Origin: Candidatus Methanophagales archaeon
Lineage (GTDB): Archaea > Halobacteriota > Syntropharchaeia > Alkanophagales > Methanospirareceae
DNA: 64,000 nt
Assembly: GCA_030602585.1 (NCBI GenBank)
Contig: JAUVZJ010000004.1
Span: 279 to 64,278 of the forward strand
Direction of reading: 5' to 3'
In this document: positions 14,733 to 31,154 of the stretch, piece by piece
Position numbering within the stretch: the first letter of the stretch is position 1
Layout of the letters: every line of letters starts with the position of its first letter
Notes under the pieces: generated by a model
Told to the model about the DNA's origin: nothing
The model's database searches: none
What the model saw: the letters and a program-made list of their open reading frames with translations, nothing else
Position numbers and translations under genes: made by a program

Positions 14733-15809
14733 ATGATGGAAAAAACAATATTTTTCGACCTCGAAGGACCTTTATCACCGCAAGATAATGCCTACGAGGT
14801 GACGAAGCTAATAGGAAAAGAAGGCACTTTTATTTTTGAAGTTATAAGCAGATATGACGATATTATATCGTTTGATGGACGTGAAGGCTACGAGCCCGGG
14901 GATACCCTCGCCTTAATCGTGCCTTTTTTTTTGCTACATGGCATAACCAAAGAGGATATAAAGAAGGTATCAGAGCGTGCAAAGATAGTAGAAGGTGCAG
15001 AATACTTATTCGAGCGGTTACAGGCTGAAAATTGGGACATTTACATCATATCTACAAGTTACGAGCAGCATGCTTACAATGTAGGTCGCAAACTGGGAAT
15101 CCCGGAGAACAAAATTATATGCACGGAGTTAGATTTAGAAAGAAGCGATTTACAAGAAGACATCTTTCCTTTAATAAAAAAGGCTCAAGAAGACATAATC
15201 AAGCTTTATTCGCACATTGACAACACGGAACTCATAGTGAATCGCTTGGACGAGTTCTTCTTCCATCAACTGCCCTCTTTGGGCTATGATATTTTTACGA
15301 CGAGGGTAATAGGCGGCGAAAGAAAAGCAGAAGCAGTACGGGCGATAGCAAAAGAAAAGAGAATAGATTTACGCGAGGTCATCGCTGTTGGCGACAGCAT
15401 TACTGATTATAAGATGCTGAAAGAGGTTGTAACACATGGTGGAATCGCGGTTGTTTTCAATGGTAACGAATATGCGGTTCCTTATGCCAATGTAGGACTT
15501 GCATCCGTTGATATAAGGTTTCTTCACATATTATGCGAGGCTCTTGTGCGAGGCGGGAAAGGAGCAGTGATGGACGTGGTGACGGAATGGGAAGAGAACA
15601 GGGTGGGGTTTGAAAAGAATCCTGCGGATATTTCAGATAACTGTATTACCGGCGATATAAAGGATTTTATGATGGAACAGAAACGAAAAGAGCCTTTTCC
15701 TTATTTTCATAATCTTGAGCACGCAGGCGAAAGAAGAAAAGAAGAGATAATTGAAATACATAAGCGGTTTAGGATGCAGGTGAGAGAAGAAGCGGGTAAA
15801 CTGGGGTAA
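14733..15809 (+). CDS. HAD-superfamily (PSPase-like) hydrolase-like protein
   Basis: Motif I-like FFDLEGPLS and motif IV-like AVGDSITDYKML; 358 aa; the nucleophile motif is atypical (DxE). Confidence 0.4.
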   Translation: MMEKTIFFDLEGPLSPQDNAYEVTKLIGKEGTFIFEVISRYDDIISFDGREGYEPGDTLALIVPFFLLHGITKEDIKKVSERAKIVEGAEYLFERLQAENWDIYIISTSYEQHAYNVGRKLGIPENKIICTELDLERSDLQEDIFPLIKKAQEDIIKLYSHIDNTELIVNRLDEFFFHQLPSLGYDIFTTRVIGGERKAEAVRAIAKEKRIDLREVIAVGDSITDYKMLKEVVTHGGIAVVFNGNEYAVPYANVGLASVDIRFLHILCEALVRGGKGAVMDVVTEWEENRVGFEKNPADISDNCITGDIKDFMMEQKRKEPFPYFHNLEHAGERRKEEIIEIHKRFRMQVREEAGKLG

Positions 15810-15832
15810 GGTAAAATCGCATGATGTTACAC
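15761..15832. repeat. 72-nt direct repeat copy A (3' end of the HAD-like gene)
   Basis: About 92% identical to 16392..16463. Confidence 0.8.
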
Positions 15833-16391
15833 TCTCACGGCTTATTTCATATTCGCTTAATCGCTTTTTCAGGTGAGGGGATGGGTAAAATACGGTAAAG
15901 ATAATTGTTACACATATACTCTGTTAAATCCTTCACGGCTTTAATCTAATAACATGATTTTCTATCCCCATCCTCCTTTACCTTTATACTTTGAAAGACA
16001 GTAAAACAGTAACATTTTTAAAAACATCGAAAAGTTTAAATAGTGATTATAATATTATAATAATTAACAAAAACGACGGGTGGTAGGGCAAATGCCTTTC
16101 AGCGGGTAAGTCCCGCCTACCACTCGGCAACTAAATGAGCTTATTTTTCTTTATTCTCTCAATCTCTTCTGATAAAGTGATATAGTTGTCCGGTATTCTT
16201 CTCATAAAAATTCTTTTAACTTCATATAATCAATTCTAAATCCAAGGTTTTCTGCGGATTTATTTAAATTTGCACCGTCAATGAACATCATGGCTTTTTC
16301 TTCCATATTTTTTACGTAAGACGAGGGATATTTATAAAACTATCGAGATTAAAATTTCAGCGTATCTTGGATACAGGCTATAAAATAAATT

Positions 16392-16463
16392 TAAGCGGTT
16401 TAGGATGCAGGTGAGGGAAGATGCGGGTACGCTGGGGTAAGATAAAATCGCATGATGTTACAC
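16392..16463. repeat. 72-nt direct repeat copy B (orphan duplicate of the gene 3' end)
   Basis: Encodes the same last ~16 codons plus a stop, with 6 substitutions; follows a 560-bp AT-rich non-coding spacer. Confidence 0.8.
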
Positions 16464-16549
16464 CCTGGCTTGCTCAAAAATTAAGTCTCTAAAAGGATAG
16501 CTTTATATAAATTTTTTTATTTTTTATTTAATGTTCACTTCATGTAAAC

Positions 16550-20305: not shown

Positions 20306-20710
20306 ATGAAAATAAAAGGCAGGAGTATCTCAAAGGGAGTGGCTACCGGAAAAGCATTGATTTCAAAGCAAGAAATTTCATTCCTCGGTGCAGTAAACCC
20401 TGTCACTGGCATCATCGTAGATAAATCTCTTGACATCTATGGAGAATGCATAACGAATCGCATTTTGATATTTCCCGGTGGAAAAGGCTCAACTGTTGGC
20501 TCTTATGTAATATACCAGCTTAAAAAGCATGGGAAAAGCCCGTATGCCATGATCAATCGCCGTGCAGATACAATAGTGGCAGTGGGTGCGATTATAGCGG
20601 AGATACCCGCGGTTGACTCGCTTGAGATTGATCCGGTTGATGGTGAGCTGATAGAGGATGGAGAGGAGGTGCTTGTGAATGGAACCGAGGGCTACATTGA
20701 ATTACAGTGA
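20306..20710 (+). CDS. UPF0107/DUF126 protein (aconitase-X swivel domain; candidate phosphomevalonate dehydratase small subunit)
   Basis: Start at MKIKGR; motifs GKALISKQEISFLGAVNPVTGII...FPGGKGSTVGSYVIY match the DUF126 family. Confidence 0.55.
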   Translation: MKIKGRSISKGVATGKALISKQEISFLGAVNPVTGIIVDKSLDIYGECITNRILIFPGGKGSTVGSYVIYQLKKHGKSPYAMINRRADTIVAVGAIIAEIPAVDSLEIDPVDGELIEDGEEVLVNGTEGYIELQ

Positions 20711-21671
20711 AGAAAAAGAAAATGAAACGAGGAAAACGTTGGAAAGGCAGGGATACCACTTCGTAGGAGCGAAGAAGCACAGTGCGGTGAAAACCTGTTT
20801 ATGGTTAAGGAAATCTCTTAGAGGAGAGGGAAATTGCTATAAGGGCAAATTTTACGGCATCCGCGCGCATCGGTGCATCCAGATGACGCCTTCTATTTTC
20901 TGTAATCAGCGATGTGTCCATTGCTGGCGCCCTCTTGAGGCATTTAACATGGGAACAGAAGAGAAGCATGTCGTTTGGGATTCGCCTGACGAGATAGTGG
21001 AAGAGAGTATAAAAGAGCAAAAGAGGCTTATTTCCGGGTTTAAAGGCTCTGACAAAACCAGCATGGATGCATTTGCAGAGGCTGAAGTTCCAAAACACGC
21101 CGCTATTTCGCTCATAGGCGAGCCTACACTGTATCCGTATTTAAAGGAGCTTGTTCAGGAATTCCATTCGCATGGCATGACCACTTTTGTGGTGACGAAC
21201 GGCACGAATCCTGATGTGCTGCGAGAAATACGCCCTTCTCAGTTGTATTTATCATTGAATGCACCGGACGAAGCCATTTACAAAAAAGTTTCACACGCCA
21301 ATCACTGGTCTCGTATAAAAGAATCGCTGGAAGTGCTGAAAAGGCAGAAAGGGAGAACGAGAACAGTCGTAAGAATCACCTGTGTAGAAGGACTGAATAT
21401 GGTGAATCCAGAAGGCTATGCCGAATTGTTAGAAATAGCAAATCCCGATTTTGTCGAGGTGAAGGCATATATGCACATCGGGTATTCGAGAAAACGGTTG
21501 AGTAGAGATGCTATGCCCACGCATTCACGAGTAAAAGAATTTGCAAGCGAAATTGCGGATTTTTTAGCATCTGCATCTAACTATGACTATAAGATAGTAG
21601 ATGAATCGGAGATAAGCCGGGTGGTTCTTATTTCATCAACAAGCTTGGAGATGTCGAGGCGAAAGATTTAA
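20679..21671 (+). CDS. taw1: tRNA wybutosine-pathway radical SAM enzyme Taw1 (4-demethylwyosine synthase)
   Basis: HSAVKTCLW...CNQRCVHC (Cx3Cx2C) and TYW1-like length; overlaps the preceding gene by ~30 nt, so the start is uncertain. Confidence 0.7.
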   Translation: MEPRATLNYSEEKENETRKTLERQGYHFVGAKKHSAVKTCLWLRKSLRGEGNCYKGKFYGIRAHRCIQMTPSIFCNQRCVHCWRPLEAFNMGTEEKHVVWDSPDEIVEESIKEQKRLISGFKGSDKTSMDAFAEAEVPKHAAISLIGEPTLYPYLKELVQEFHSHGMTTFVVTNGTNPDVLREIRPSQLYLSLNAPDEAIYKKVSHANHWSRIKESLEVLKRQKGRTRTVVRITCVEGLNMVNPEGYAELLEIANPDFVEVKAYMHIGYSRKRLSRDAMPTHSRVKEFASEIADFLASASNYDYKIVDESEISRVVLISSTSLEMSRRKI

Positions 21672-21732: not shown

Positions 21733-23388
21733 CTATTTGATTGTCCTTAATTCCACCTCACACTCCGAGCAGAACCGCTCATCCGCTTGCACTTCCTTAC
21801 CACAGTTTGGGCATTTCCTCGCCGAAGTAATTTCTGACCGCTGAACAGCACTGTCCTCAATATTAACACTTGTTGCACTTTCACCATGTCCACCAAAACT
21901 CGTTCTCTGCACAACCGAATCAATAATATTAATCACCTGCTTGCTCTCGATAATTCCAATCTCCTTTGCCGATTGAACCGACCCCACAAGATGTCGTATG
22001 CTGTTTCCAATCTCGTTTAAGAACCCGTGCAGACCGTAAGGCTTATCCGAATATGCGCGGAGTGCGACTTGAGTAAAGTTATTATAAGGCTGAATGACCG
22101 CAGTGAGCAGATAATACGCCTTTTCTCCTATTGATTCACCTGCAAGGTTAACTATTTTTGCGGAGTCAATTTCATGTTCGCTGATAACATAAAGCCGATG
22201 CGCACATGCTTCTTTGACAAATTCTGTAATTTCATTGACGCTGATTCCACTGAACGATAAACCTTCCTGAATATGTTCGCATGTATTTGCGAGTTCTGCG
22301 AATTCGCCTTCTCGCATCGCTTTTTCCTTGAGGAATGGGCAAACGCAATGCACCTCTTTCGGTCGCATCTGCACCGCTTGCTTTTCTCCTGTGTGGTCTT
22401 TGTAGGTTATGGTTGCATCTATTTTTTCGTTGTGGATGCAGCCAAGCGGTGTAAGTATGTATTCCGCAGTTCGCTCTCCATGAGGGTCAATGTTGGCGAG
22501 ACTTTGAACCACATTGTCGTTAAAGGAGAAGAGTGTTTTTGGATAGGCGAGTATGGTTTCTACATCCATTATCGCAGAGTCGGTGTTGTTGATGATGCGG
22601 ATACCGAATCGGAGGTCGTTGTTTTGTAATACTTCGTAGCCTCGTTTTATCTCTACCTTTGCCAGCGTAACTTCTTCCGTAGGGATGGATGTGGAAGGAC
22701 CTGTTCTGGCGGTGACCGTTCCAATTTCTATGGACTTGTTATAGGTTTCGTCTTCCAAGTCCTCGAATGACAATTTAAAAGTTCCAATGTTTATCTGCCC
22801 TGCAACAGATGGATTGAGTTTAAACGGCACCTCTCTATCAGAACCGGGATCAATTTTTTCTATTTTAACTTCGTTTTTACTGATGCAATCAATTTCAACT
22901 GGATGTAGCACAGAAATTACAATATTTTTTGCTACAACCATTCCTGTATTCCGTAATTTCAGCGAGACCACATTATCCTCGCCCACCTGTAAGAATGCAG
23001 GCACTGATGGCTCTGCTATCAGCTCAGGTTCTGGTGGATACACAACAAACTCCTCACGTAGTGATTTTGAGTAATTAGCGCAGGTTACTTCAACAGATAC
23101 ACTTTGTTTTCCTGCTTTGAGTGCTTTGATTGGAATATCAAGTTCTGTGGATGACTGCTTTGGAATTGTGTTTATCGTTGGCTCCGTGAGTATTTCGATG
23201 CCGTCTGATGCCGTTACAGCGATTGAAATTGGGTCTGCGTTTGCGTAGCCGTAGCCTGTGTTTTTTACATGTAGCGTTAATTCGCCAGATTCGAGTGCAT
23301 TCAGGGTCGGGATGGTCATGAAAAGCGTGAGGTTTGGAGCTCCTTTGCGATGGCTGGTTATTACTTTATGGGCTATGCCTATGAACAT
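21733..23388 (-). CDS. surface/secreted multi-domain protein with beta-sandwich repeats and C-terminal zinc ribbon
   Basis: 551 aa; repeated Ig-like segments; C-terminal CPNCGKEVQADERFCSECEVEL zinc ribbon; the upstream in-frame extension encodes a TM helix but has no canonical start. Confidence 0.5.
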   Translation of the reverse strand: MFIGIAHKVITSHRKGAPNLTLFMTIPTLNALESGELTLHVKNTGYGYANADPISIAVTASDGIEILTEPTINTIPKQSSTELDIPIKALKAGKQSVSVEVTCANYSKSLREEFVVYPPEPELIAEPSVPAFLQVGEDNVVSLKLRNTGMVVAKNIVISVLHPVEIDCISKNEVKIEKIDPGSDREVPFKLNPSVAGQINIGTFKLSFEDLEDETYNKSIEIGTVTARTGPSTSIPTEEVTLAKVEIKRGYEVLQNNDLRFGIRIINNTDSAIMDVETILAYPKTLFSFNDNVVQSLANIDPHGERTAEYILTPLGCIHNEKIDATITYKDHTGEKQAVQMRPKEVHCVCPFLKEKAMREGEFAELANTCEHIQEGLSFSGISVNEITEFVKEACAHRLYVISEHEIDSAKIVNLAGESIGEKAYYLLTAVIQPYNNFTQVALRAYSDKPYGLHGFLNEIGNSIRHLVGSVQSAKEIGIIESKQVINIIDSVVQRTSFGGHGESATSVNIEDSAVQRSEITSARKCPNCGKEVQADERFCSECEVELRTIK

Positions 23389-23453
23389 TAGGAGTCCTAG
23401 GAGTATGCCAGCTCCGTAGAGTATTAGTTGCTTTGTTTTTGCCTTTTCGGCAC

Positions 23454-24527
23454 TTATTCTTGCGTTTTCAGCACTTGTTTTTGCCTGGTTTGCGAATTGA
23501 CCGCCTCTTGATACTGTTTGTTTTCAAGTGCTGTTTTTGCCTGGTTCAAGAGATTTTGAGCCTCTGCTGTATCTGCTCCGATTTTGTTTGCAGAGGCGAT
23601 TTCGGATTGTGCTTTCGAAATTGCATTCGTGATTGTAGATAGTAGTTCAATCTTTGATTTAGTAGCGAACGCATACACACAATAATCCGGCGAGCAAACA
23701 TACACCACACCGTCTGCCACCGCAGGTGACCTGACAGGTGACCTGACAGTGCCACCCGTTTTGTATTTCCATTTCTCTGCACCACTATCGGCATCTAACG
23801 CATACATATAATCATAACCCGAGCCAACAACTACACCGCCTGCTACCACTGGTGACGAACTGACCCAATCATCCTTTTTGTATTTCCACTTCTCTTTACC
23901 ACTATCGGCATCTAACGCATACACATAATCACCCGAGCCAACATACACCACACCGTCTGCTACCGCTGGTGACGAACTGAACCAGCCACCCGTTTTGTAT
24001 TTCCATTTCTCTGCACCACTATCGGCATCTAACGCATACACATAACTATCAGCCGAGCCAACATACACCACTCCGTCTGCTACCGCTGGTGACGAATGAA
24101 CAGAATCACCCGTTTCGTATTTCCATTTCTCTTCCCCACTATCGGCATCTAACGCATACACATAATCATCATACGAGCCGACATACACCACTCCGTCTGC
24201 TACCGCAGGTGACGAACTGACACCATCACCAGGTTTGAATTTCCACAATAGTTCCAGCGGCGGTTCAGCTTCACCATCTGCTTGTCCGGTATGTGCGGGG
24301 TCGTGGCGGAACATGGGCCAGTCGGTTGATGTGAGTGTTTTAATTGATGTGGGGGTTGGTGCTGTTAATACAAGGGTTGTTTCGACCTCTTTCTGATACT
24401 GCCCGCCATCCAGTTCCGCAGATGCTGGCATTGTCACTAACGACAGCAATCCAACAACAACCAGTACTACAATAACTATCCCTATTTTTCCTTGTTCGTT
24501 CTTAATTTTTATTTCCATTTTCCTCAT
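23454..24527 (-). CDS. PQQ-repeat beta-propeller protein with N-terminal membrane anchor
   Basis: Six or more repeats of AVADGVVYVGSxDxYVYALDADSGxEKWKYKTG; N-terminal TM; C-terminal coiled coil. Confidence 0.7.
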   Translation of the reverse strand: MRKMEIKIKNEQGKIGIVIVVLVVVGLLSLVTMPASAELDGGQYQKEVETTLVLTAPTPTSIKTLTSTDWPMFRHDPAHTGQADGEAEPPLELLWKFKPGDGVSSSPAVADGVVYVGSYDDYVYALDADSGEEKWKYETGDSVHSSPAVADGVVYVGSADSYVYALDADSGAEKWKYKTGGWFSSSPAVADGVVYVGSGDYVYALDADSGKEKWKYKKDDWVSSSPVVAGGVVVGSGYDYMYALDADSGAEKWKYKTGGTVRSPVRSPAVADGVVYVCSPDYCVYAFATKSKIELLSTITNAISKAQSEIASANKIGADTAEAQNLLNQAKTALENKQYQEAVNSQTRQKQVLKTQE

Positions 24528-24831
24528 GTGAAAATCTATTTCCCTATTTTTAAAGGGACAAACTGATGATAAAAAGTTTAGTATTGTTTCAATTATTATT
24601 ACAAATATAAGCTAAAAAATTTAAAATATTCGAAATTTAATTTCGGAATTGTGATAACTTTATATAGCAGATAGTTCATACCTTAAGTAAAAGATGTGCA
24701 GGCTAATGGATGAGGCGTAAAAAGAATGAATAGGGAAATTTTTGGAGATAAGTGTTTCATACAGAGAGATGTATACAAACCAAGTTTGGATATACAACGT
24801 TATATGAAATTGCCAGTTGGTGGAATGAGAA

Positions 24832-25875
24832 ATGGATATTGAAAGAGCCGTAGAGAAGTATCTAGTTGCGATTAGAAGCGATATTTTCGCAGAATATGAA
24901 AAAGAATTTGCTCAGAAAATTACTTCTGCACTGGCGAAAGGATATCTTCAAAATTCACATGAAACACCTTTGGTTCAAATTGTAGAAGATGTAGTTAACA
25001 ACGTTGATAACTTAAATAGGAAAGATCACTTTGAGTTATCAACAAGATCCATTTTCATTCATGGAAACAAATCACAAGTCAAGTTTGATTGTTACGGACA
25101 GAGCGTGCCATCAATAGAGTTGGGCGACTTAATATTCATTATCTCAGTTGTTTTTGATAATAAGAAATATTTTGAGAAATTCACAATCAATCAATTTAAA
25201 AGGGATAAAAGAAACACCAAAAGCATATCTTGGAGTATAGGCAATAGAAAACAACTTTATTTGTTATCACGATTTCCAACATTCCGAGGAGTGAAAGGTC
25301 TTATCCCAAAGAAGGATTTTAATTTACCGAATTATTCGGGCTGTTTAGGTTCTTATGGATTACTTTACAATCCAGGAGACTTTGCCTTTGTTAGCGCTAC
25401 TGGATTAGATTCCTTTATCGGTCATAAGAAGACTCTGAAAAAGAAAGAGCTCTATCATTTGACTGAAAAGTACCTGTTTCCCTATTTTCCCTATTTTTAT
25501 CCCGATATAGATGAGTTACTTTCTTTGTCATCCGAATTCAAGAGGTATTTGTCATGGAATCTTTTTGGCAATTATCATCGTGCATATAACGTATTTGATT
25601 TTGCACATAAATACCTGAGAGTAGGCATTGGTGAACCTATATTTATGAAAATAGGAATATATAACTCACTAGCCAAAAACTTTCTTCATGAGTTGTTCTC
25701 GGCAGTAAAAATCAAAGCAAGAAGAGAGCGGGATATATTAAAGTTCATAGACGGGTTTTTTAGATATGATTATGCAAGCAGTGAAGGAGAAGGTAGTTTT
25801 AGAGGAAATATAGAATTTGATTTTGAGGGAGGGGGAATAGGGATAATTCATACAATAATAAATCTAGGTGAGTAA
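24832..25875 (+). CDS. island ORF 1: hypothetical protein with PD-(D/E)xK-like nuclease core motif
   Basis: AT-rich 347-aa ORF; segment ELGDLIFIISVVFDNKK fits the hhhD...hhh(D/E)xK pattern; no other recognisable features. Confidence 0.4.
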   Translation: MDIERAVEKYLVAIRSDIFAEYEKEFAQKITSALAKGYLQNSHETPLVQIVEDVVNNVDNLNRKDHFELSTRSIFIHGNKSQVKFDCYGQSVPSIELGDLIFIISVVFDNKKYFEKFTINQFKRDKRNTKSISWSIGNRKQLYLLSRFPTFRGVKGLIPKKDFNLPNYSGCLGSYGLLYNPGDFAFVSATGLDSFIGHKKTLKKKELYHLTEKYLFPYFPYFYPDIDELLSLSSEFKRYLSWNLFGNYHRAYNVFDFAHKYLRVGIGEPIFMKIGIYNSLAKNFLHELFSAVKIKARRERDILKFIDGFFRYDYASSEGEGSFRGNIEFDFEGGGIGIIHTIINLGE

Positions 25876-26025
25876 TGATGGTGACTTTATATAACAAAAT
25901 ATATCTGGCTTTGCGCCTTCGGCACTCCGCCAAAATTTGCTCCGCTATCACTTCACAAACTTCAGATACGCTAGGAACGTTTAGCGAGATTGGGTTAAAC
26001 TTACCAGTAAGAAAGGAGGTTTTAG

Positions 26026-26460
26026 ATGGCAGTAATTAGTGCAACTCTAGATTGGGACGGTGTATGGGTGATAAAGGAGGATGAGATACCTTCTAATATC
26101 CCCGATGAAGAAGGGATTTATATGGTCCACAGTGGAAAACGCTCTGACGAACCCAACAAATGGGTCCCATCATCCTATGAATTGCTGTACATTGGAGAAG
26201 CTGAAGAAGTCCGCTCTAGAATTGCCGGGCACGAAAAGTGGTCATGTTGGAAGCGGAATTGTAAAAACCACATACTTTTGAAAGTGGCCAGATGTAGATT
26301 CGGAACTACAAAAAGGCAAAAGGTTGAGTGTTGCTTGATATACAAGACTAAGCCAACCTGCAATGATGAATGCAAAGACGATTTCCCTCATAAGAATGAC
26401 ACAATCCAGATAACAAATACAGGTATGATATCGCCTTTGAAAGATAACTATACTTGCTAA
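26026..26460 (+). CDS. island ORF 2: GIY-YIG-like nuclease domain protein with Cys-rich tail
   Basis: GIYMV (aa 30-34), LLYIGEA (53-59), VRSRIAGHE (Arg/His/Glu); C-terminal Cys cluster; RBS AGGAGG upstream. Confidence 0.45.
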   Translation: MAVISATLDWDGVWVIKEDEIPSNIPDEEGIYMVHSGKRSDEPNKWVPSSYELLYIGEAEEVRSRIAGHEKWSCWKRNCKNHILLKVARCRFGTTKRQKVECCLIYKTKPTCNDECKDDFPHKNDTIQITNTGMISPLKDNYTC

Positions 26461-26534
26461 GTTGGGGCTAGCAACTTAGCCTAACAGCGTGTATCTAGCT
26501 CAGCTACGCTTCGCCAACATTTAGGATAGATGCT

Positions 26535-27188
26535 ATGGATGAAAATCCGAGAAAATACATTGTAAGTATAAGTATCTCCTCGGTAAATTATACATACAAA
26601 AAATCCGAGGAACTAATGTTTCTAACCCAAAGGTTCCCAGAGCAATCAAATACTTTAGCTGCATGTGCAGTTGTTCTTTTTGCAGCAACTTTGGATCAAG
26701 GCACTTTAACTGTCTTAAAAACACTGATTAACCAATATGCGGCCACTAACTTGATAGATACTGACAGTGTTCCTTTTAGTCGTGTAGTAAAGGAATCATT
26801 AAAGAACCGTATTATGAAACTTCCAAGTATAGTAACAGAAGCAAAGTACTGTCTCAGATCAGATATAAAAGAAGTTGAACATTTATACGCTATAGTAACC
26901 ACTAGGAACAATCTCGTTCACATTCAAGATGATATCCGTTTAATCTATAACCCAGAAGTTAAATATGTTGAAGAAAAGGGGGTGTTTCAAACAGTTATCA
27001 AACACCCGAACCCGTGGAAAGATGTTACTTTGAACAAAGTCAAGCAGTATTACCAATCTTTTAGGACTTATTACAACCAAGTGTTATTTCCTTCATATGA
27101 AATACCCGATTCCAAATTGTTACAAAAGAATAATAAAGAAGAAAAAAATACATACTATCAGATATACTTGAATGCCCTATCAGGGTAA
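26535..27188 (+). CDS. island ORF 3: hypothetical protein with HEPN-like R-N-x3-H motif
   Basis: TTRNNLVH at aa 123-129 matches the Rx4-6H HEPN catalytic motif with a polar residue after Arg. Confidence 0.35.
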   Translation: MDENPRKYIVSISISSVNYTYKKSEELMFLTQRFPEQSNTLAACAVVLFAATLDQGTLTVLKTLINQYAATNLIDTDSVPFSRVVKESLKNRIMKLPSIVTEAKYCLRSDIKEVEHLYAIVTTRNNLVHIQDDIRLIYNPEVKYVEEKGVFQTVIKHPNPWKDVTLNKVKQYYQSFRTYYNQVLFPSYEIPDSKLLQKNNKEEKNTYYQIYLNALSG

Positions 27189-27231
27189 TGTTGACCCATC
27201 CTAGTTTTTAGACAAAATAATACGCGGCACA

Positions 27232-27591
27232 ATGTCGTATAACTACACATTTGAGGCTCCACTCGGATTTGAGCCCAATGTTAATCTACACGAGAAGCTA
27301 TCACGGTGCCACGGCTTAAAAGAATACAAGAAGCTATGGAAAGAAGAACTAACACGTAAAGATCAAACTATTCCTTTACTCACCGAGATAGTAGAAAATT
27401 GGAATGAGTTCACTGATGCTTTTAATCTACGGCATACACTTATTCACGGACGGGGGACTTGCTCAAGGAATATGGCAGAAAAGCCTGTCGAAGAAATGCT
27501 TTTGGCAACTGATGCTCTGTATGATTTTGCGCGGTCTCGTGGAAAAAACCTTAATGACCGACTTCCTGTTCGCAGGAAAAAAGCGAATTAG
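27232..27591 (+). CDS. island ORF 4: hypothetical protein with HEPN-like R-H-x3-H motif
   Basis: FNLRHTLIHG at aa 64-73; 119 aa; 43 nt downstream of ORF 3. Confidence 0.35.
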   Translation: MSYNYTFEAPLGFEPNVNLHEKLSRCHGLKEYKKLWKEELTRKDQTIPLLTEIVENWNEFTDAFNLRHTLIHGRGTCSRNMAEKPVEEMLLATDALYDFARSRGKNLNDRLPVRRKKAN

Positions 27592-27690
27592 CAAAGACAA
27601 ATAGGCCGGCGCTATCTCTCTTAACATGTGAAAAATAGCCTAAACATATAACTTAATATAGATAAAAAAGAATAAAATAAGCAACTAAAA

Positions 27691-27882
27691 ATGGAAAGCA
27701 GAATAATATTTGATACCAAAAGGCTCATTAAAGAATTAGGTATATCTCAGGAAGAATACAAAGAATTAGAAAAAACCGTTAAAAAAGAATTCCCACAGGA
27801 TGAAATGATGTTTCAGTTACATCTTTTGCGGGCATTAAAATCTATAAGCCATAAGAAAGCTAAGGAAAGAGGAACGTTTTAG
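27691..27882 (+). CDS. small protein, putative antitoxin partner of the downstream PIN protein
   Basis: 63 aa, helical and charged; ends 2 nt before the PIN gene. Confidence 0.35.
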   Translation: MESRIIFDTKRLIKELGISQEEYKELEKTVKKEFPQDEMMFQLHLLRALKSISHKKAKERGTF

Positions 27883-27884
27883 CG

Positions 27885-28340
27885 ATGGTGCGCAGAATTA
27901 TAAAGGTTTATCTGGATACATCGGTGATCAGCGCTTTATTTGACGAAAGAAACGCAGAACGAAAAAACCACACAGAGGAGTTTTGGAGAGAACTTAGAGA
28001 TTATGAGGTTTATGTCTCTACGCTGGTAAATGAGGAACTCGATGCGGCATCTGATGAAATAAGGGCGGAAATGATTGATAAAAATAGAGGGTTTAAAATC
28101 TTAGAAATCACTGATGAGGTGGAACGACTTGCTGAAGAATATCTAAGCAAAGGAATTTTCCCGGAGCGATATAAAGACGATGCTATACATGTTGCTGTGG
28201 CTGTGGCAAATAATATAGATTTCCTCATCAGTTGGAATTTTAGACATTTAGTTAAAGTTAAAACTCGTAGAATGGTTAATTTAATAAATGAGATATTGGG
28301 CTATCCACACATAGAAATCATAGCCCCACCTGAACTCTGA
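27885..28340 (+). CDS. PIN domain (VapC-like) ribonuclease
   Basis: N-terminal VYLDTSVISALFD and DAIHVAVAVANNIDFLISWN acidic PIN motifs; 151 aa. Confidence 0.6.
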   Translation: MVRRIIKVYLDTSVISALFDERNAERKNHTEEFWRELRDYEVYVSTLVNEELDAASDEIRAEMIDKNRGFKILEITDEVERLAEEYLSKGIFPERYKDDAIHVAVAVANNIDFLISWNFRHLVKVKTRRMVNLINEILGYPHIEIIAPPEL

Positions 28341-28535
28341 ACTTTCTCTTCTTTCGCTATCTCTTCTAAATTTCTTTTAATTTTGATGAATCCACGTGTT
28401 TCATTTTCTCTTTCTCAGAAGATATGCTACCGCCAATAGTCCTGCGATTGCATCCCTAAACTTGTATCTTGTATCCTGTATCCTGCATCATGAATCCCTG
28501 CTTCATTTTCTTGCTACCTCTGCACAACCGCCCCT

Positions 28536-28805
28536 TTATCCCAATTCCGCCCCACAATACGGACAGAATTTCGCATCCGCTTGCACTTCCTTACCACAGT
28601 TTGAACATATCCCTACCGAGCCAATTTCTGTCCGTTGAACGACACTGTCCTCAACATTAACACTTGCTGCACCCGTTCCACCAAAACTCGTTCTCTGCAC
28701 AACCGAATCAATAATATTGATAACCTGCTTGCTCTCGATAATCCCAACTTCCTTTGCCGACTGGACTGAACCCACGAGATGCCGTATGCTATTTGTTGTC
28801 AACAT
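28536..28805 (-). CDS. small zinc-ribbon protein; diverged duplicate of the 3' end of the gene at 21733..23388
   Basis: 89 aa; about 85-90% nucleotide identity to 21757-22020; CSNCGKEVQADAKFCPYCG zinc ribbon; overlaps the DUF368 gene by 17 nt; may be a pseudogene fragment. Confidence 0.4.
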   Translation of the reverse strand: MLTTNSIRHLVGSVQSAKEVGIIESKQVINIIDSVVQRTSFGGTGAASVNVEDSVVQRTEIGSVGICSNCGKEVQADAKFCPYCGAELG

Positions 28806-29637
28806 TTAACCGCCGATTACTTACATATTCCAGAATAAAAATAATGGAAAAACCAAGCATAGCGGAAATCAAAACAGGCAAAATCGAATCCATTGCGCTC
28901 ACGATGTTCTGATAGGGAAGCCGTAATGCACCTAACATCAAACCAATAAGAAAAGATAGGATAATGGTTTCATGCTTTTTCAGTGCGTAATCTAAAACTC
29001 TGGAGAAACATAAAATACCGATTAAAGCGCCGAAACAAAAGGTGAACATTTCTAAGAACCGCAAATTCTTCAGTACAAAGAGCATATATTCATACTGGTT
29101 CAGGAAAAGCAATATGAACGCGCCAGAGATACCCGGCAGTATCATTGCACATATTGCCACGGTGCCGGAAATAAAAAGGACGGGCAAGGAATGCCCAATT
29201 TGCAGTGCACCAAATCCTACGAATAAAAAGGCAAATATAAATCCAATGAATGAAAACGAAATATTTTTGACGGACATGCCGTCTCCTCTTTTGTAGAGTA
29301 AAACCGCTGACGCAAGGATTAAACCAAAGAAGAACGCATAAGTGAGCGCAGTTAAATATATTATCTTGGACATAAGTAAAAACGCCAAACCAATACCGGA
29401 AATTAGCGGGATGAATAATTTAAAATCTATTTCGCTGATATTTTTCTTTGCTTCATCAAAATCGCCTTTAAGAAAATAAGTAACAAATTTAAAATCTATT
29501 TTACTTATCGAATGAACCAACCTTTCATAAATGCCTGTAATCAGTGCAATTGTTCCGCCAGAAATACCCGGTATTATATCTGCTACACCCATGAATAGCC
29601 CTTTCAAAAATATAATCAGCGTTTTCATTGATTTCAT
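28789..29637 (-). CDS. DUF368 family membrane protein (putative undecaprenyl/polyprenyl-phosphate transporter family)
   Basis: N-terminal GVADIIPGISGGTIALITGIYERL hallmark and internal repeat (PGISGAFILLFL). Confidence 0.7.
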   Translation of the reverse strand: MKSMKTLIIFLKGLFMGVADIIPGISGGTIALITGIYERLVHSISKIDFKFVTYFLKGDFDEAKKNISEIDFKLFIPLISGIGLAFLLMSKIIYLTALTYAFFFGLILASAVLLYKRGDGMSVKNISFSFIGFIFAFLFVGFGALQIGHSLPVLFISGTVAICAMILPGISGAFILLFLNQYEYMLFVLKNLRFLEMFTFCFGALIGILCFSRVLDYALKKHETIILSFLIGLMLGALRLPYQNIVSAMDSILPVLISAMLGFSIIFILEYVSNRRLNVDNK

Positions 29638-29690: not shown

Positions 29691-30044
29691 TTACGTTTTT
29701 TTGTGCTTACGCTTTTGCTTCGTTTTCCCAAATAAAGAAGGTAAATGAATTGCGTAAGAACCATCCTCCTTTAACCCCAATACTATCCCCTTCCGCTCTA
29801 ACAACGCATCCAGATTGAGCTCGTATACGCCGGGACTCAGAATCCTCAGGCTTTCTATCTTCTCCCCCTCTAAAGGCACCTTTTCTTCTATTTTTATCCT
29901 CTCCACCAAATCCACTGCGCTTATGTCTATATCTTCTTCTCCCTTTATATAAAGAAAAAGATTCCCTCCGCACTCCGAACAGCCCCCCAACATCTCTTCC
30001 GTTATCTTTTCAAATCTCTTCCCACATTTCAAACACTTGTGCAT
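29691..30044 (-). CDS. Zn-ribbon protein (DUF2072-like)
   Basis: N-terminal CLKCGKRF...GGCSECGG zinc ribbon; part of the conserved archaeal GTPase-DUF2073-ZnR triad. Confidence 0.55.
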   Translation of the reverse strand: MHKCLKCGKRFEKITEEMLGGCSECGGNLFLYIKGEEDIDISAVDLVERIKIEEKVPLEGEKIESLRILSPGVYELNLDALLERKGIVLGLKEDGSYAIHLPSLFGKTKQKRKHKKT

Positions 30045-30051
30045 TTTTAGT

Positions 30052-30384
30052 CTATATAGCAGAAATGACTGCGCTTATTAAGTCCCTTTCCTTCTTTATC
30101 GTGCGCATCGTCTTCGCAGGTCCTATCACTGTCAGCCTCGTCTGCCTTCTTATATTTAAAAAACTCTTCTTAGACGGATATCCACTCATCTCTATTCCAG
30201 GAAAATCCTCGTTTACCTCCGTCATTGTGAGCTCTATCAGTTTCATCTGCTCCTCCGACGTCAGACCGCCCTCCAACACCACTATATTACCCGACTTCAC
30301 ACCGTCCAACACAAATCTTAGCTTCTCCATCGAGGTCATCGAATTTATTTTATCTTCTGAGATCAGGTCCATCTTTATTTCCAT
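30052..30384 (-). CDS. DUF2073-like protein
   Basis: 110-aa protein between the Zn-ribbon and GTPase genes, as in the conserved archaeal operon. Confidence 0.45.
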   Translation of the reverse strand: MEIKMDLISEDKINSMTSMEKLRFVLDGVKSGNIVVLEGGLTSEEQMKLIELTMTEVNEDFPGIEMSGYPSKKSFLNIRRQTRLTVIGPAKTMRTIKKERDLISAVISAI

Positions 30385-30425
30385 CGTTTAATTTCTCACC
30401 CTCCTGTTTCTTTTACTTTCATCAC

Positions 30426-31154
30426 TCATCGGAATCTCCTCGCTATTTCCTCATACAACCCCTCCATATTCTCCCCTTTCAATGCTGATATGGGTATGAC
30501 GGTGTGCTGAGGGAAAGCATTCATTATCCTTTGTGGAAATGCATCCACGAGGTCAATTTTATTTGCGGCGATAATAATCGGGATACCTCTTGCTTCCATG
30601 TTCCCGATGATGATTATGTTAGTTTGCGTATATGGGTCCTCGGTAGAATCCATAAGGAGCACAACGCCGTCAATGTCGTCGAGCCATTTTATTGCCTCTA
30701 TAACACCTTCTGTCGCCTCCTTCGCCCTCTTTTTCGCCTCTTCCTCTTCTAAACCGTAAGCCATGAACTCGTGAAAATCTATTTTCGTCGCTAATCCCGG
30801 AGTGTCAACCACATCCAGCTTCAATTTTGCTTTTCCTCTTCTTGACTTTGACGTTGGGGTTGGGTTGGGGTTGGAGTTGGGAGTTGGGTTCTGCACTGGC
30901 ACTGATTTCAAATCTATGAGTATTCCGCTTTTCATGACTGCTCTTCTCGTCTCGTGTGGTACCTCAGTGGCTACCCCCATATCTTCGTTCTCATCCACAA
31001 AAGTATGGACTATTCTATTCGCCAAAGTAGTTTTACCCGCATTCGGCGGTCCGTAGATGCCGATTTTTGCCGTTGCCTTCCTGAAAAACAAAGCCCTTAT
31101 TAGATATGGTAAAATGCCCTTCATCCTTTTCCTCGACTTCATATCTTCTTCCAT
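30426..31154 (-). CDS. small GTP-binding protein (Ras/Era-like)
   Basis: G1 GPPNAGKTT, G3 DTPG, G4 NKID; contains a Pro/Asn/Thr-rich low-complexity insert encoded by GTTGGG repeats. Confidence 0.7.
   Translation of the reverse strand: MEEDMKSRKRMKGILPYLIRALFFRKATAKIGIYGPPNAGKTTLANRIVHTFVDENEDMGVATEVPHETRRAVMKSGILIDLKSVPVQNPTPNSNPNPTPTSKSRRGKAKLKLDVVDTPGLATKIDFHEFMAYGLEEEEAKKRAKEATEGVIEAIKWLDDIDGVVLLMDSTEDPYTQTNIIIIGNMEARGIPIIIAANKIDLVDAFPQRIMNAFPQHTVIPISALKGENMEGLYEEIARRFR

Follow-up and report, generated by a model that had tools for sequence, protein, structure and literature searches.

Background

Deletion by homologous recombination between dispersed direct repeats is known for ribosomal RNA (rRNA) operons, insertion sequence (IS) copies and Rhs elements. 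Here we describe a comparable arrangement in a 64,000-nucleotide stretch of DNA (hereafter the window; contig JAUVZJ010000004.1, positions 279 to 64,278, assembly GCA_030602585.1) from a Candidatus Methanophagales archaeon. The 3' end of a gene encoding a 551-amino acid (aa) protein recurs in direct orientation in an 89-aa open reading frame (ORF) adjoining a DUF368 membrane protein gene, and a metagenomic contig almost identical to the window supports loss of the DNA between the two copies. As in the rRNA, IS and Rhs cases, two direct copies, here 6.8 kb apart, appear to have recombined within their longest identical block, leaving a hybrid product and removing the intervening DNA. However, the repeats in this archaeon extend over just 258 bp at 83% identity, the identical core within them is 42 bp long, and one of the two copies is probably an orphan tail. 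The case is also supported by one metagenome contig, and not by reads or experiment.

The locus can also be compared with the orphan C-terminal modules of Rhs and contact-dependent inhibition (CDI) systems. In both, the truncated end of a family gene has a full-length member close by in the same orientation, with which it can recombine into a hybrid. In the case described here, however, the variable part is N-terminal and the shared part C-terminal, there is no toxin or immunity function, and recombination destroys the full-length gene rather than supplying it with a new end.

For the 551-aa protein itself, the closest described relatives are the archaeal 'Meth_adaptin' proteins. These occur in neighbourhoods of the endosomal sorting complex required for transport (ESCRT) type, and combine an appendage region of Ig-like and TBP-like domains with a zinc ribbon and an extra N-terminal domain (Makarova et al. 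2024; PMC11188069). The structural models in that survey concern a Methanosalsum zhilinae neighbourhood, SPFH-Zn-ribbon and ProX proteins are listed as partners, and a published member is WP_013898571.1 (PMC11188069).

Two gene ends in direct repeat

An earlier note on this DNA, made from the letters alone, had proposed that a gene 3' end is directly duplicated, and a blastn comparison of the window with itself confirms that the duplication is real. The two copies (A, within the 551-aa gene, and B, within the 89-aa ORF; Table 1) are both coding on the minus strand and align with 82.9% identity over 258 nt (E = 9e-71). The measured value of about 83% is somewhat lower than the 85–90% nucleotide identity first estimated. 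With the exception of the blade repeats of a PQQ gene and one 75-bp pair, this is the sole long dispersed repeat in the window. A repeat scan divides it into two adjoining blocks, 21882-22006 versus 28670-28794 (125 nt, 88% identity, spacing 6788 bp) and 21749-21878 versus 28543-28672 (130 nt, 81% identity, spacing 6794 bp). The two spacings differ because of one 6-bp indel, which is the single gap in a MAFFT alignment of the copies.

At the protein level the copies share 67 of 86 residues (78%, E = 6e-42). Divergence is concentrated in the second half of the zinc ribbon, and copy A carries four additional codons (RTIK) at the position where copy B terminates in G. The earlier note had put the difference in the last ~10 codons. 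Similarity ends 1–4 codons ahead of both stop codons, and the flanks further out are unrelated. Since the similarity is restricted to coding sequence and ends at the natural end of the gene, the copies look like the ends of two paralogous genes rather than like a duplicated segment of DNA. We also considered whether the similarity reaches upstream into the coding end of DUF368. Past the first 9 nt, however, ungapped identity as judged by eye is ~33%, which is the chance level.

The tails are separated by a synonymous divergence (dS) of ~0.47, and the ratio of nonsynonymous to synonymous divergence (dN/dS, Nei-Gojobori) is 0.24 overall. Over the first 39 codons dN/dS is 0.019, with 11 synonymous changes and 1 nonsynonymous change (Fisher p = 1.6e-7). 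These values indicate an old duplication, after which selection at the protein level acted on the tails as they diverged. The longest block identical in A and B is 42 bp. Gene conversion was considered as a source of this identity, but by a rough hand estimate the run is just marginally above chance given the protein constraint, and we make no claim for it.

Copy B and the DUF368 junction

The 89-aa ORF and the DUF368 gene overlap by 17 nt, with the ATG of the ORF inside the DUF368 3' end, and the first bases of copy B coincide with the stop codon of DUF368. The small ORF does not, as had been thought, overlap the start of the DUF368 gene. In genomes with a DUF368 gene 87% identical at the nucleotide level, similarity to the window is confined to 29654-28817. 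These relatives have SepRS 43 nt downstream of DUF368 and XseA upstream, and carry no tail copy. Because they match the window across DUF368 alone, the joint between DUF368 and copy B is a synteny breakpoint, and the proposal that the repeats mark a past rearrangement is borne out to that extent. The DUF368 C-terminus in the window, EYVSNRRL, resembles that of the relative P0155. The end of the gene is therefore native, and the joint falls within the last five codons. A scan of JGI metagenomes detected neither a tail nor shared synteny at more distant DUF368 loci (at most 66% identity).

We read copy B, with moderate confidence, as the orphan 3' remnant of a paralogue. Similarity to the 551-aa gene starts at residue 462, which is within a predicted helix of the platform domain (453–469; predicted local distance difference test score, pLDDT, about 92) and not at a domain boundary. 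Copy B retains the usual family ending, CG..LG before the stop codon, as in P0004-P0006, whereas copy A ends in the unusual CEVELRTIK. The 89-aa product also differs from copy A in GTGAASVNVEDSVVQR. No remainder of a second family gene was found elsewhere in the window by self-blastn.

Database searches point in the same direction. An exact look-up of the 89-aa protein returned no record, and among 17 word-indexed matches the sole close one is the hybrid on contig L001, described below. The short homologues with examined contigs (P0003, P0005, P0008, P0010, P0012 and P0016) are pieces of larger family members that have been broken up by frameshifts or deletions or truncated where the contig ends, and DUF368 adjoins none of them. 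When 1.84 billion representative proteins were searched exhaustively with phmmer, nearly all matches to the whole query fell at the C-terminal end of proteins of 385–1203 aa, and no stand-alone family of ~90 aa was found. In another lineage, a tail-only remnant (L018 compared with L035) shows 9 nonsynonymous and 3 synonymous differences, with a pN/pS of 0.82 as opposed to 0.10 in the adjacent beta-CASP gene, and thus evolves near-neutrally. The earlier note had left two readings of copy B, a small zinc-ribbon paralogue standing alone or what is left of a disrupted one. The ORF is not widely conserved as a separate gene, which favours the second.

Alternatively, copy B may be a working stand-alone small protein consisting of the conserved helix, the linker and the zinc ribbon. 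It could be co-transcribed with DUF368 and perhaps share a partner with the tails of full-length members, in which case the repeat would simply reflect two functional paralogues. Several observations fit such a protein and weigh against a remnant. The NCBI record annotates the ORF as a gene, and the ORF itself is uninterrupted, has a start codon, retains all four cysteines (CxxC...CxxC) and ends in the canonical family C-terminus. Its match to Pfam Zn_Ribbon_1 (6e-11) is the stronger of the two, compared with 1.7e-5 for copy A. The excess of synonymous changes in the first 39 codons indicates that selection acted on the protein encoded by copy B during most of its history, and perhaps still does. 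The tail helix QVINIIDSVVQRTSF is close to invariant across the family despite being modelled at low confidence (pLDDT about 50), as might be expected of an element that binds a partner, and the L001 hybrid likewise keeps the ORF open. In addition, none of the relatives found is close enough to display the full-length paralogue beside DUF368.

However, the selection signal could have accrued while copy B was still the end of a full-length paralogue. Moreover, a protein of this kind would begin in the middle of a helix, and its start codon lies exactly at the DUF368 junction with no clear ribosome-binding site. The absence of an orthologue beside DUF368 in the closest relatives examined and of a ~90-aa family in the phmmer search also argues against it. 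We consider a functional small protein possible but somewhat doubtful.

A contig lacking the intervening segment

Protein P0002 (94 aa, ENA assembly ERZ6005983) starts like copy B and ends like copy A. The contig that encodes it, L001 (NODE_6121 of the same assembly, 1,037 bp, coverage 11.5), reads, in order, DUF368 (last 130 codons), the hybrid ORF and TYW1 (last 103 codons, on the opposite strand). When it is compared with a virtual recombinant built from the window there are 3 mismatches in 1,037 nt, or 99.7% identity. A three-way alignment shows that L001 tracks B until the base preceding the 42-bp core. Past the core it tracks A, through the 6-bp indel, the stop codon of A and the 3' flank of A into TYW1. 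The contig supports a putative deletion of 6,788 bp through homologous recombination of the two direct copies, and thus strengthens the earlier suggestion that the repeats could mediate loss of the genes between them.

The three differences from the recombinant, at positions 180, 342 and 418 of the contig, are apparently all amino acid changes. DUF368 has two of them and the tail ORF has one (V to I), which is too few to interpret. A comparison in which L001 seemed to be a 98%-identical strain was misleading, since the B-derived part of the contig had been aligned to copy A.

Copies A and B are 17% apart, compared with 0.3% between the strains, so the hybrid must derive from a genome in which both copies were already present. 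Deletion is also the simple direction for the event. Insertion would need a circular intermediate bearing the reciprocal hybrid, of which there is no trace. We infer that the event was a deletion and not an insertion, and that L001 is not an assembly error.

The evidence for the recombinant is a single short contig of 1,037 bp at the coverage given above, with unknown assembly settings. This weighs against a natural deletion variant, as L001 could instead be an assembly chimera formed at the 42-bp shared block, and the repeat would then be merely a potential substrate for recombination. The near identity of L001 to the window means that a population with both copies could have been present in the same sample. 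Logan k=31 unitigs (SRR14872670, SRR14872667) match the outer flanks at 99.9–100% and each end 30 nt into the core, L020 and L021 at 21918 and L019 at 28689. These unitig ends confirm both outer joints, and the inner joints are not distinguished at k=31. Because the unitigs branch inside the core, assemblers using small k cannot resolve it.

However, the name of the contig is in the SPAdes style. The default largest k of SPAdes is 55, which exceeds the 42-bp core, so the k-mers that join the two sides should come from reads. L001 also continues unbroken for about 390 nt past the repeat in both directions, and does not stop at the branch points expected if both forms had been present. It carries three single-nucleotide differences from the window, and other samples have yielded no recorded protein within 90% identity of the 551-aa or PQQ products. 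On this evidence we think that a chimera is unlikely, although it is the main caveat to the deletion.

Table 1. Features of the direct repeat and its surroundings, in window coordinates
Feature	Position	Strand	Remarks
Repeat copy A	21749..22006	-	codons 462-547 of the 551-aa gene, from the end of the platform helix through the conserved strand and helix and the linker to the zinc ribbon
Repeat copy B	28543..28794	-	codons 5-88 of the 89-aa ORF
42-bp identical block, A side	21889..21930	-	interval in which contig L001 changes from B to A
42-bp identical block, B side	28677..28718	-	counterpart of the A-side block
Segment absent from L001	21931..28718		6,788 bp: first 461 codons of the 551-aa gene, PQQ gene, island, 3' part of copy B
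551-aa gene	21733..23388	-	carries copy A; Pfam matches and AlphaFold2 model in text
89-aa ORF	28536..28805	-	called as gene in the NCBI record; ATG at 28805 inside the last DUF368 codons
DUF368 / VCA0040-like membrane protein gene	28789..29637	-	upstream of the 89-aa ORF; single-gene synteny block with 87%-identical relatives
TYW1-type radical SAM gene	20679..21671	+	convergent with the 551-aa gene; adjoins the hybrid copy in L001
PQQ beta-propeller protein gene	23454..24527	-	N-terminal hydrophobic anchor; five tandem DNA-level blade repeats
Low-GC six-ORF island	24832..28340	+	347-aa, GIY-YIG-like, ApeA/HEPN-like, Rx4H-motif, small and PIN ORFs

A possible history of the locus

The account that seems to us the most probable, if by no means assured, is that a paralogue was reduced to its tail and that the two tails then served as sites of deletion. 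Copies A and B would be the 3' ends of two paralogues from a large family in archaea of the ANME-2, Methanoperedens and Methanosarcinales type, in which a variable binding domain is joined to an adaptin-appendage-like module followed by the conserved helix and the zinc ribbon. Copy A is part of the intact 551-aa gene. Copy B would be what was left after a rearrangement took the first ~460 codons of the second copy and set the remainder against the end of DUF368, where an ATG within the last DUF368 codons would have kept it open as an 89-aa ORF. Being in direct orientation, 6.8 kb apart and identical over 42 bp, the tails offer RadA-type homologous recombination a substrate. Such recombination would have deleted 6,788 bp in a strain almost identical to this one, taking with it most of the 551-aa gene as well as the PQQ gene and the whole six-gene island and leaving a hybrid tail ORF of 94 aa between intact DUF368 and TYW1 genes.

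Taken as a whole this amounts to nothing beyond normal genome plasticity, in a family with an apparent tendency to break, and it alters no current concept. It does provide a checkable case of strain-level variation in gene content in an uncultured archaeon of the methane cycle. Recombination between a gene and the tail of its paralogue may here remove a 6.8-kb block in which a gene for an appendage-like adaptor and one for a PQQ propeller lie beside a small toxin-antitoxin/nuclease island. The locus is also a warning for assembly and binning, as the identical 42-bp core breaks k=31 unitigs and can yield alternative joins.

The conserved tail might also have a role of its own. The 89-aa product might be a free tail protein that competes with or regulates the partner to which the tails of the many family members bind, and in a wider sense the nearly invariant tail could act as a recombination handle by which variable cargo-binding domains are swapped, deleted or shuffled. 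The idea of a handle agrees with the presence of broken or tail-only copies where synteny is interrupted in several relatives. These are anecdotes only, however, and we regard this reading as speculative and rather improbable.

Split, internally deleted or tail-only copies of the family are present on several archaeal contigs (L002-L004, L015/L016, L018/L035/L036 and L033/L034), and the family looks unusually breakage-prone near its conserved 3' end. In L018 compared with L035, the synteny break is inside the tail, at about residue 438. The tail remnant and the spacer that follows it (L018 392-745, L035 5033-5392) have a pS of 0.06, compared with 0.33 in the neighbouring beta-CASP gene. This likeness suggests either a recent recombination tract or constraint at the nucleotide level.

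The enclosed segment

GC content is 30–38% only at about 24.5–28.4 kb, compared with 42–47% elsewhere, and the 551-aa and PQQ genes have a host-like base composition. Among the island ORFs the GIY-YIG/UvrC-like and ApeA/HEPN-like matches are weak, and the PIN protein is preceded by a small ORF. Two other samples also have the junction between the PQQ gene and the island, at about 92.5% identity. The earlier note described the repeats as bracketing a segment that includes the island. That they bracket an inserted island is not supported, as the low-GC region covers just part of the 21.9–28.7 kb segment and the contigs from those samples share the junction.

An integrated mobile element, with the repeats as its attachment sites and with insertion into a gene 3' end that received a replacement end, would account for direct repeats flanking a low-GC island with toxin-antitoxin-like and nuclease-like genes, and for absence of the segment from a near-identical strain. 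Pfam, NCBIfam and PADLOC scans of the segment ORFs identified no integrase, recombinase or transposase, and gave PIN, PQQ, CARDB and zinc-ribbon matches together with the weak nuclease-like and HEPN-like ones only. There is no transfer RNA gene nearby, the island has no match in PLSDB, and the 42-bp core has none in IMG/VR. The repeats are 17% diverged (dS about 0.47) as against 0.3% between the strains, rather than being near-identical ends. There is no gene body upstream of copy B that could have been the target, and the switch from B to A within the longest identical block points to homologous and not site-specific recombination. Together with the composition of the segment and the shared junction, these results make a mobile element very improbable; the repeats are not attachment sites of the island, and its enclosure between them is coincidental.

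The PQQ gene contains five tandem repeats of 117–129 nt at 23668-24287 that are about 80–83% identical and probably correspond to the propeller blades. These repeats are a second internal substrate for recombination, and a likely cause of assembly breaks.

The 551-aa protein

The earlier note had labelled the product of the 551-aa gene a surface protein. Read by eye, the sequence shows neither a signal peptide nor a membrane segment, and the predicted fold resembles an adaptin appendage. Pfam matches are limited to a CARDB/TRAP-beta-like sandwich and to the C-terminal zinc ribbon, where Zn_Ribbon_1 and DZR match residues 524–546 just under the Pfam cut-offs (24.9 versus 25 bits). No model in Pfam or NCBIfam spans residues 244–500.

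We identified 379 homologues of the protein at E <= 1e-5, and those listed align over roughly half to four-fifths of the query. Where source names are given they are ANME-2, Methanogaster, Methanoperedens and Methanosarcinales. In an alignment of 47 of the homologues the part common to the family is residues ~244–551, with roughly 40–60% identity. The domains fused to this common part include TPR, HEAT, PQQ, WD40, FGE-sulfatase, TPM, SPFH/Band 7 and MIT.

The 47-sequence alignment was also the input for an AlphaFold2 model, which is confident over residues ~121–470 (pLDDT >= 90 over most of this range) and models the N-terminus poorly. The model contains a predicted CARDB-like beta-sandwich (121–228), an appendage-like sandwich (246–355) and an alpha/beta platform (360–469) that closes with the helix mentioned above. 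A short strand and a helix at 484–496 follow at low confidence and lead into a disordered linker. The zinc ribbon (523–545) is predicted at pLDDT 80–89.

A Foldseek search of the PDB matched the model over ~240 columns to the AP2 alpha and beta2 appendages and to COPI entries (1e42_A, 1w80_A, 1pzd, which is the gamma-COP appendage, and 9qpq_H) with E values of 1e-6 to 1e-8. The target-normalised TM-scores are modest, at 0.31–0.44. A profile search of solved structures returned nothing relevant. Given the likeness of the model to these appendages and the combination of domains described for 'Meth_adaptin' (PMC11188069), the 551-aa protein is probably appendage-like by fold and can be set beside 'Meth_adaptin' by its architecture.

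The parallels are in the predicted sandwich and platform of the AP2/COPI appendage type, the C-terminal zinc ribbon and the extra N-terminal domain. Relatives of the 551-aa protein bear PQQ, HEAT, SPFH or MIT domains or carry a JGI 'ProX-type' name, and the published representative of 'Meth_adaptin' is likewise from a Methanosarcinales genome. However, the genes scanned around the 551-aa gene, which cover part of the window (TYW1, PQQ, the island, DUF368, oapC, oapB and a GTPase gene), include no Vps4, ESCRT-III or SPFH gene. A further difference is the very large expansion with many N-terminal domains, which is known here from database matches alone. The surface protein label may thus be replaced by membership in an archaeal adaptin-appendage-like family that has been linked to ESCRT-type sorting systems. 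The family itself, expanded in methane-cycle archaea and already outlined in the literature, is the more interesting by-product of the analysis.

Within residues 317–350 of the 47-sequence alignment Cys317, His319, Glu321 and Cys348 are invariant and His347 is nearly so (PLGCIHNE ... KEVHCVCPF). From this conservation pattern, these residues could form a candidate metal site within the appendage-like sandwich.

Other observations in the window

A 75-bp direct repeat (15761-15835 and 16392-16466, 92% identical) is found in a non-coding stretch between a HAD-like ORF and an LTD/SNase ORF, and has no match in Rfam. Directly upstream of DUF368, at 29691-31154, are oapC, oapB and the GTPase gene, which Pfam describes as 'origin-associated proteins'. 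In the 18–32 kb stretch that was profiled, the cumulative GC skew has its minimum near 31 kb.

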